DNA of 64,000 nt from Candidatus Daviesbacteria bacterium (GTDB lineage: Bacteria; Patescibacteriota; Microgenomatia; Daviesbacterales; UBA10151): positions 2,217 through 66,216 of the forward strand of contig JACOXG010000012.1 in assembly GCA_016176405.1 (NCBI GenBank), in the 5' to 3' direction. Numbering within the stretch: position 1 is the stretch's first letter; each line of letters starts with the position of its first letter. The notes beneath the pieces were generated by a model. It saw only the letters and a program-made list of their open reading frames with translations. It was not told the DNA's origin and did not search any database. Shown here in pieces: positions 4,799-5,338 of the stretch. A program made the translations under genes and the position numbers.

Positions 4799-4826
4799 CA
4801 GTACAACACTGTGCCACTATCATTTA

Positions 4827-4844
4827 AAATGATTCAAATCATTT
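4827..4844. promoter_or_regulatory. 18-bp inverted repeat AAATGATT-ca-AATCATTT (candidate operator), copy 1, overlapping the start codon of the YerC-like gene
   Basis: Two perfect 8-bp arms with a 2-bp spacer. The identical 28-mer ttaaaatgattcaaatcatttaaacaaa recurs at 5301-5328. Confidence 0.5.
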
Positions 4845-4850
4845 AAACAA

Positions 4851-5300
4851 ATGACACAGGTCTCAAGATACCCAATTTCCAAAGAGGTTTATGAAAGATG
4901 CTGGGAAATATTTGTAAAGACTTTAATAGGGATTCACAATGTCAAAGATGCTGAGATAGTTATTAATGATTTGCTAACCCCTACCGAACGGATCATGTTA
5001 GTAAAAAGATTAGCAACAGCATTACTTTTAATGCAGGGATATGAATATCGAGAAATTAGCAAAGTTTTAAGAGTCAGTCTGCCAACCATATCCGCAGTTA
5101 ACAGATCTTTAAGATATGGCAGTAATGGTTACAATAAAGCACTTTCTAAAATCTTAAAAGATGAACAGTTTGCAGAATTTCTTAATAAAATGATCCAAGG
5201 CATAATTGCTCTGCCAGCTCGAGGGGGGATAGGCTCGGGAACGTATAGGTATCTTAGACAAGAACTCCAGAAAAGGTCAAAAGACAGAAAAGCCTTCTAG
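4851..5300 (+). CDS. YerC/YecD (TrpR-like) family HTH DNA-binding protein
   Basis: LLTPTERIMLVKRLATALLLMQGYEYREISKVLRVSLPTISAVNRSL matches the Trp-repressor-like YerC family signature. The gene is bracketed by identical 28-bp repeats at 4824-4851 and 5301-5328. Confidence 0.6.
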   Translation: MTQVSRYPISKEVYERCWEIFVKTLIGIHNVKDAEIVINDLLTPTERIMLVKRLATALLLMQGYEYREISKVLRVSLPTISAVNRSLRYGSNGYNKALSKILKDEQFAEFLNKMIQGIIALPARGGIGSGTYRYLRQELQKRSKDRKAF

Positions 5301-5303
5301 TTA

Positions 5304-5321
5304 AAATGATTCAAATCATTT
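5304..5321. promoter_or_regulatory. 18-bp inverted repeat AAATGATT-ca-AATCATTT (candidate operator), copy 2, upstream of the histidine-phosphatase gene
   Basis: Identical to copy 1. It lies immediately after the YerC-like stop codon and 17 nt before the next ATG. Confidence 0.5.
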
Positions 5322-5338
5322 AAACAAAGTGAAAAAAA

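Follow-up and report, generated by a model that had tools for sequence, protein, structure and literature searches.

A TrpR-family gene bracketed by two identical palindromic repeats

The 64,000 nt of contig JACOXG010000012.1 analysed here (the window) belong to a metagenome-assembled genome (MAG) of Candidatus Daviesbacteria (Microgenomates, Candidate Phyla Radiation, CPR), and carry a gene for a TrpR-family regulator of the HisR/YerC type that is enclosed by two copies of a palindromic repeat (Table 1). An initial annotation of the window had described 28-bp direct repeats bracketing this gene with an 18-bp palindrome inside each copy, and both descriptions were confirmed. The sequence TTAAAATGATTCAAATCATTTAAACAAA is present as an exact repeat on the plus strand at 4824–4851 and 5301–5328, with no other copy and no further match at up to 3 mismatches in the window, and did not occur in any of 100 shuffled sequences (chance expectation 0). 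Copy 1 overlaps the regulator ATG codon by its final A, and the first base of copy 2 is directly 3′ of the TAG stop codon (5298–5300), with a gap of 0. The 18-bp inverted repeat AAATGATT-CA-AATCATTT is found in both copies (4827–4844 and 5304–5321), and the dyad symmetry in fact reaches approximately 26 bp, with three mismatched mirror pairs in the dyad at 4823–4848 and two in the dyad at 5300–5325, in which the G of the TAG stop codon participates.

Copy 1 is located immediately downstream of the top promoter-like site in the region 3400–6400 (TTGACA-17-TATCAT, 11/12 positions matched), and spans the predicted transcription start and the entire leader up to the ATG codon. A −10 sequence ending 11–12 nt 5′ of the dyad centre was also found in three orthologous loci (L002, L004 and L006 in the collection of homologues described below). 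No promoter was detected at copy 2, where the top promoter-like score was 8/12 and no −35/−10 combination precedes the repeat. This second copy lies within the 38 bp that separate the regulator stop codon from the ATG codon of a phosphatase gene, which starts 10 nt after the copy.

The regulator matches Pfam PF01371 (Trp_repressor) over residues 18–100 (E 1.1e-14, 54.6 bits versus a cut-off of 27), and is by sequence a member of the TrpR family. Its assignment to the YerC/YecD subfamily is marginal (NCBIfam TIGR02531, 42.7 bits versus a cut-off of 42.2), and its score for the TrpR equivalog TIGR01321 (22.6 bits) is far below the cut-off of 67. The AlphaFold2 monomer model has a TrpR-like all-helical fold, with a block-mean predicted local distance difference test (pLDDT) score of >90 over residues 10–100, and the top Foldseek matches were 3G1C, 3FRW and 3KOR, followed by 1ZT9 and 1TRO. 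The nearest solved structures (3FRW, 3KOR and 3G1C, all HisR-type) cover residues 11–106 only, so that residues 107–149 are outside every solved homologue. They belong to a C-terminal extension of approximately 45 aa that is conserved among the aligned CPR relatives, and the two helices modelled there (105–120 and 130–144) are of low confidence. The bracketed gene encodes a helix-turn-helix (HTH) protein only, and a catalytic domain is absent from both the Pfam matches and the model.

The gene order around the regulator is rpoC, rpsL, rpsG, a CBU_0592-family membrane protein gene, the regulator, a His_Phos_1 phosphatase gene, a gene for a GreA_N-only protein and fusA. A His_Phos_1 gene is also located 3′ of the regulator in L004, L005 and L006, which are three of the five closest relatives. 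As the top promoter precedes the regulator and the only terminator-like site of the region follows the phosphatase gene, the two genes are probably co-transcribed as a single operon, with copy 2 in the intercistronic spacer. The 75-aa protein encoded at 5954–6181, directly 5′ of fusA, consists of the GreA/GreB N-terminal coiled-coil domain alone, and is kept 5′ of fusA in the related Daviesbacteria loci L002, L003, L005 and L006.

Table 1. Features of the regulator locus and of the candidate third site (window coordinates)
Feature	Position	Strand	Details
TrpR-family repressor gene, HisR/YerC-type, 149 aa	4851..5300	+	GenBank HYS94_02635
Predicted sigma-70-type promoter of the regulator	4795..4823	+	−35 TTGACA 4795–4800, 17-nt spacer, −10 TATCAT 4818–4823
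Operator copy 1 (putative)	4824..4851	+	Dyad centre 4835/4836; starts 1 nt after the −10 hexamer
Operator copy 2 (putative)	5301..5328	+	Identical to copy 1; dyad centre 5312/5313
Histidine-phosphatase-superfamily gene (His_Phos_1)	5339..5878	+	Pfam E 7.8e-32; below every NCBIfam equivalog cut-off
Predicted intrinsic terminator, GC-rich stem and T-run	5905..5928	+	Sole terminator-like site in 3400–6400; 3′ of the phosphatase gene
Third operator-like site	30029..30056	-	23/28 identity to the 28-mer; dyad centre 30044/30045; in the 48-bp spacer 5′ of acyP
Acylphosphatase gene acyP, candidate regulon member	29743..30012	-	Acylphosphatase NCBIfam approximately E 1e-22; all below equivalog cut-offs

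The bracket recurs in most of the sampled regulator genes of Patescibacteria

A homologue scan using one genome per species returned 80 loci, and wherever the record title names a phylum-level group, this is Microgenomates or other Patescibacteria in every case. Some of the records, including L002–L004 and L006, are third party annotation MAGs titled 'uncultured Gammaproteobacteria' or 'Pseudomonadales', labels that look wrong; their rpoC, rpsL, rpsG and fusA genes are 60–90% identical to the Daviesbacteria genes of the window. At nearly all loci a palindrome is present just 5′ of the ATG codon, with a matching copy just 3′ of the stop codon. With a bracket defined as a best ungapped segment common to the upstream and downstream flanks scoring at least 12, 67/79 homologous loci were bracketed compared with 6/355 control open reading frames from the same loci, and the median scores were 20 and 7, respectively. 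The layout is therefore found in most related genes of the Microgenomates and other Patescibacteria sampled, and is apparently undescribed so far, as literature searches brought up neither the family nor the layout for Patescibacteria, with a paper on HisR (PMC9413887) the only one to surface.

Dyad statistics are based on 62 loci, in each of which the two dyads have scores of at least 6. The mirror symmetry in this set was 76–99% at positions 1–13 from the centre, with 84% at position 1 and 98% at position 2, and dropped to 58%, 39% and 40% at positions 14–16. Since the symmetry is lost from position 14, the site is approximately 26 bp long. The family half-site consensus is RYTTnAATGATTy, with a T at position 6 in 99% of the 248 half-sites. 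The dyad centre is mostly located 15–21 or 28–31 nt 5′ of the ATG codon and 11–17 nt 3′ of the stop codon, giving a centre-to-centre spacing of 420–548 bp (mostly 470–500 bp).

Promoter overlap and co-variation with the recognition helix

In the initial annotation, the palindrome was taken for a dimeric HTH operator serving autoregulation, an interpretation supported by the symmetry through the centre, by the overlap with a conserved promoter and by co-variation with the recognition helix across approximately 60 loci. In the 5′ copies, the dyad directly follows or contains the −10 sequence, or its left arm TTGATT acts as −35 sequence; a promoter scoring at least 10/12 was found for 13/62 of these copies, and the −10 boxes are concentrated at a small number of distances from the centre of the dyad. 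The dyad sequence itself varies between lineages and between paralogs. Several MAGs carry two pairs of regulator and putative operator per genome, and in two-paralog genomes (30–52% identity between the proteins) a distinct dyad is found at each paralog. These differences follow the recognition helix, as the motif VSxPTIxxVN pairs with the dyad GATTYRAATC, VTPPTIAxVS with GATATATATC, SPPTIAK with TACTATATAGTA, and VSEATI with TACAGCGCTGTA and TACTTTAAAGTA. When the rest of the protein was controlled for, the distance between dyads remained correlated with that between helices (partial Mantel r 0.25 for the inner core and 0.20 for the outer arm, p = 0.001), with shared phylogeny as a caveat.

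We consider it likely, from sequence comparison, that the repressor recognises the 28-bp repeats on either side of its gene as operators. Each dyad of approximately 26 bp would presumably be bound by a dimer of the protein, and a repressor bound to copy 1 would block its own promoter, since copy 1 starts 1 nt past the −10 sequence and covers the transcription start and the leader, which predicts autorepression. The layout, its conservation in the family, the symmetry of the DNA and the co-variation with the helix are observed in the sequences, from which we infer binding itself, the sign of regulation and a role for an effector.

The 3′ copy as a probable promoter-less operator

The 3′ copy was kept in 41/49 loci with a co-directional next gene and in 23/28 loci with a convergent next gene, the latter including gaps of just 50–62 nt (L057–L059), and none of the 62 3′ copies had a promoter of at least 10/12 in the σ70 scan. 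The neighbouring genes are not conserved (66–71 Pfam families across 77 loci), and no functional theme was apparent among the target and neighbour genes, which encode LTD proteins, TsaB-like proteins, SDR, recA, a glycosyltransferase and many unknowns. Because the 3′ copy is kept irrespective of the direction of the next gene and without a strong promoter, it is best regarded as a part of the regulator module, and generally as a promoter-less operator. The suggestion in the initial annotation of autoregulation combined with control of the phosphatase gene thus stands for its first part, with the overlap between copy 1 and the promoter; its second part is weakened, as the 3′ copy is primarily a feature of the regulator module, kept in 23/28 of the convergent cases.

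Copy 2 would then function as an auxiliary operator abutting the stop codon, and the most economical mechanisms, both of them inferences, are looping of the DNA between the two occupied copies and a roadblock formed by the protein where the gene ends. The first option is that copies 1 and 2 are paired by protein-protein contact, which would enclose the gene in a loop of approximately 480 bp; alternatively, copy 2 may act as a roadblock halting polymerases that leave or enter the gene. As copy 2 would be located inside the regulator-phosphatase operon, the same protein may throttle the phosphatase gene and reduce read-through, by either loop or roadblock. That the C-terminal extension mediates oligomerisation is a guess.

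The 3′ copy could instead be the promoter and operator of the next gene, with two independent promoter-operators at each locus and the bracket as a by-product, which we regard as unlikely. This fits the loci where the next gene starts 30–38 nt past the regulator stop codon (L004–L007, L016–L018, L023, L049 and L055), and the short distance between copy 2 and the phosphatase ATG codon in the window points in the same direction. It is further favoured by L016–L018 and L023, where the repeat is 31–32 nt long, reaches the start codon of both genes (in L016 it includes the ATG) and carries an extended-minus-10-like TGTTAAAAT or TGTTATCAT, with third sites preceding further genes in L016 and L017; judged by its sequence, the site in these four loci doubles as a portable operator-leader. 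However, the 3′ copy is equally common with convergent and co-directional neighbours, no 3′ copy reached a promoter score of 10/12, copy 2 of the window lacks −35 and −10 sequences, and in L007 a third site marks the 3′ end of the next gene, whose neighbour on that side is convergent.

Several observations weigh against the reading of the repeats as a paired set of operators for the enclosed gene. Approximately a dozen loci have the same spacing between the 3′ copy and the next gene as between the 5′ copy and the regulator gene, and the simpler scheme of two separate promoter-operators also fits these loci. The operator spacing showed no helical phasing (Rayleigh p 0.56–0.94), yet phasing is weak for loops of approximately 480 bp, so a loop is neither helped nor excluded by this result. 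Differences between the two copies of a locus included 37 symmetric, dyad-preserving mirror pairs compared with approximately 12 double changes expected from independent drift of half-sites, and this excess, mainly at the poorly conserved positions 9–10, is unexplained by simple dimer binding; symmetric changes would be expected from repair templated by hairpins in long palindromes or from some role of a cruciform. Finally, the C-terminal region that might provide the contact between bound dimers is of low confidence in the monomer model.

With these points taken into account, we tentatively extend the operator reading to a CPR clade of HisR-like proteins with a self-enclosing module, in which identical 26-bp operators may be bridged via the C-terminal extension, the gene and in some loci also its neighbour would be held in a closed loop of approximately 480 bp or an insulated domain, and operator and helix would have diversified jointly into many orthogonal pairs. 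If this is true, the module would shield the gene from read-through amid very short spacers, as inside the rpoC-rpsL-rpsG-fusA cluster.

Improbable readings: mobile cassettes and RNA elements

The initial annotation had also raised the possibility that the repeats mark a mobile cassette. The repeats would then be the termini of a small unit that can move or be exchanged together with the HTH gene, or the sites at which it recombines, comparable to pdif modules, integron cassettes or RAYT genes flanked by repetitive extragenic palindromic (REP) sequences. The neighbours differ at almost every locus, and the palindromic nature of the ends makes them also inverted repeats of each other, both of which favour such a cassette. 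Two comparisons between loci point the same way. The first is between L007 (4464–5264) and L022 (4449–4478), which have syntenic flanks and 94%-identical regulators, and differ by a one-gene indel with its ends in the repeats: L007 has one extra gene, for a 258-aa protein without Pfam match, which is bounded by operator copies, and the single L022 site matches the third site of L007. The second is L043 (VMGE01000002.1, 722–8440), where the module is located between rpsG and fusA in reversed orientation, with the bracketed regulator on the strand opposite the str genes and convergent with rpsG. Deletion between 28-bp direct repeats could have produced the L007/L022 indel without mobility, and both this indel and L043 can be accounted for by recombination at short direct or inverted repeats, with no need for dedicated mobility.

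The comparison of orthologous loci for presence or absence of the cassette showed that the order rpsG-regulator-(phosphatase)-GreA_N-fusA is kept in L002–L006, with regulators 58–70% identical to the window protein. Paralogs in the same genome are only 30–52% identical, so that they are old and were not copied recently, and no transposase, integrase or recombinase families were among the recurrent neighbours of the 77 loci. The regulator lacks a catalytic domain, and the co-variation of dyad and helix is as expected of a chromosomal repressor-operator pair. A mobile cassette is thus not supported, and we consider it highly improbable.

A role of the palindromes at the RNA level, be it as a hairpin on the 5′ and on the 3′ side in stability or termination or as a 5′-3′ duplex forming a processing stalk for RNase III, is scarcely credible. 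In its favour, the arms co-vary, changes between copies often keep pairing and the copies would be mutually complementary in a read-through transcript. Against it, the symmetry runs through the first two positions of the centre, where a hairpin loop would be unconstrained, and mirror mismatches on the sense strand were 31 of G:T-type versus 52 of A:C-type and thus show no G:U excess. The hairpins would have little stability, at −3.6 and −5.8 kcal/mol for the window copies and a median of −7 kcal/mol over the loci, and only 7/62 of the 3′ copies are succeeded by a T-run. The predicted transcription starts fall within the 5′ dyad or beyond it, or else the −35 sequence is overlapped by the dyad, so that the 5′ copy is mostly outside the mRNA, and the element has no match in Rfam. 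The RNA candidate was rejected on these grounds, and the dyad is a DNA site.

Comparison with HisR, TrpR and looping repressors

HisR (YerC) of Firmicutes represses in a histidine-dependent manner, its binding to a palindrome with the consensus cacTTTAnnnnnnTAAAgtg has been demonstrated in vitro, and approximately half of the hisR genes have an upstream site, implying autoregulation (PMC9413887). The CPR protein belongs to the same Pfam family, has the same fold and is associated with a palindromic site, and many CPR dyads have CACTTTA/TAAAGTG as outer arms, in common with the HisR operator. However, HisR proteins are <100 aa compared with approximately 148 aa for the CPR proteins, which have an extra C-terminal region (GKGSGxWRYLKxELEK...KPF), and the outer arms are 14 bp apart in the CPR dyads (approximately 26–28 bp) versus 6 bp in the HisR operator. 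The window dyad, GTTAAAATGATT-CA-AATCATTTAAAC (approximately 26 bp), is accordingly not the 20-bp HisR operator. No histidine biosynthesis or transport genes were found among the neighbours of the 77 loci or the genes at extra sites. Judged by sequence, the CPR protein misses three tested features of HisR proper, namely length, operator geometry and association with his genes, and the annotation 'YerC/HisR' in CPR genomes should not be taken as histidine regulation. At the hisR gene of Blautia (L082), from the single Firmicute lineage examined, the stop codon is followed by an ordinary terminator, and a second site is absent. A tandem-dimer reading of the 28-bp dyad, with a pair of 20-bp HisR sites that overlap at a shift of 8 bp, was not supported on inspection of L028 by eye, where the inner half-sites are unlike CACTTTA.

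The E. coli TrpR protein is a dimeric HTH repressor with an operator overlapping its own promoter, as predicted here, and its fold matches that of the window protein (template modelling score approximately 0.7–0.8 on target). The TrpR operator is 18–20 bp long, and we know of no second operator downstream of trpR. Pairs of operators are well established in DNA looping, with lac O1-O2 at 401 bp, gal OE-OI and deo, and the lambda OL and OR operators enclose cI. The CPR module resembles the lac, gal and deo systems in its combination of a promoter-proximal and a promoter-less operator a few hundred bp apart, and resembles lambda in having operators that flank the repressor gene. As in a looping repressor, one of the two putative operators lacks a promoter, with 0/62 of the 3′ copies having a strong one. 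The lac, gal, deo and lambda repressors have proven tetramer or octamer interfaces, whereas bridging by an oligomer is hypothetical for the CPR proteins, which also differ in having a second site that is identical to the first and placed exactly at the stop codon, family-wide and across a radiation of paralogs.

In REPtrons, copies of a palindrome likewise bracket a gene whose product recognises them, and more are present at other places in the genome. The RAYT proteins of REPtrons are HUH/Y1 nucleases acting on single-stranded hairpins, which are present in tens to hundreds of copies. The CPR module differs in its non-catalytic HTH protein, in the approximately 15 extra sites per Mb of the fetched loci and in the symmetry through the centre. 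Taken by sequence, it corresponds to a TrpR/HisR-type repressor that would control its own gene and has a conserved second operator, devoid of a promoter, at the stop codon; this arrangement appears to be widespread in CPR bacteria.

CPR/Patescibacteria cannot be cultured on their own, and to our knowledge their transcriptional regulation has hardly been described. The module described here is a compact, sequence-defined putative repressor-operator pair that is directly testable in E. coli or in vitro, and the dozens of natural helix-dyad variants may be useful for the recognition code of TrpR/HisR proteins and as orthogonal parts. If the 3′ operator is a loop anchor or roadblock, it would be an example, conserved among loci, of a gene insulated by the regulator that it encodes, and may hint at how ultra-compact genomes, where terminators are rare at such positions, delimit transcription units.

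Further sites and a possible small regulon

A third site, upstream of acyP, had been noted in the initial annotation as a palindromic core of 12 bp. It is statistically real and fuller than was claimed, matching 23/28 positions of the repeat at 30029–30056, including the asymmetric, non-palindromic TTTAAACAA flank. A match of this quality was found in 0/300 first-order Markov simulations of the window and in 3/300 simulations at 75% A+T. The left arm TTGATT of this site could serve as −35 sequence, with TATTTT following 18 nt later, and the layout with the −35 sequence inside the dyad was also seen at the regulator genes of L007, L010, L011, L022, L026 and L029. The third site would place acyP under control of the same repressor. 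Searches of the window with the bare 14-bp or 18-bp core and 2–3 mismatches yielded only chance-level matches beyond the three sites, and a broader regulon within the window was therefore dropped. Both candidate target genes encode small phosphatases, of the histidine-phosphatase superfamily and the acylphosphatases, which may be a hint at the physiological signal or a coincidence.

Extra sites were present in the fetched loci at the density given above, and an exact-pattern scan of metagenomes gave 23 loci, only one of which has a regulator gene nearby. Several of the metagenome contigs without nearby regulator carry solitary full dyads beside unrelated genes, and some matches of the scan, on contigs of very different G+C content, are probably due to chance. 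The extra and solitary sites fit a small and heterogeneous regulon, and the small regulon suggested by the initial annotation is plausible, given the acyP site and the solitary sites at other genes in related genomes. Genes that do not encode the regulator can themselves be bracketed by operator copies, examples being those for a 238-aa product in L087 (sites at 5294 and 6084) and for the 258-aa product in L007 (sites at 4464 and 5250), both lacking a Pfam match.

Other repeats in the window

The window contains three copies of an 85-nt repeated element (16018–16102, 22109–22193 and 47782–47866), with a conserved GC-rich 5′ part (GATCCTTCG...CTCAGGATGAC) followed by an inverted repeat. The arms of this inverted repeat vary by copy yet are complementary (GACAACAAAAGT/ACTTTTGTTGTC, GACAGAAAAAT/ATTTTTCTGTC and GACAAACTGCGT/ACGCAGTTTGTC), and the element may be another operator or a hairpin element. 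In addition, two direct-repeat pairs approximately 19.7 kb apart connect 14676–14849 with 34406–34624, one of 51 nt at 75% identity and one of 35 nt at 94% identity (CTAGAGTCGAGAGTC[A/T]AGAGTCTAG), which suggests a duplicated gene segment.

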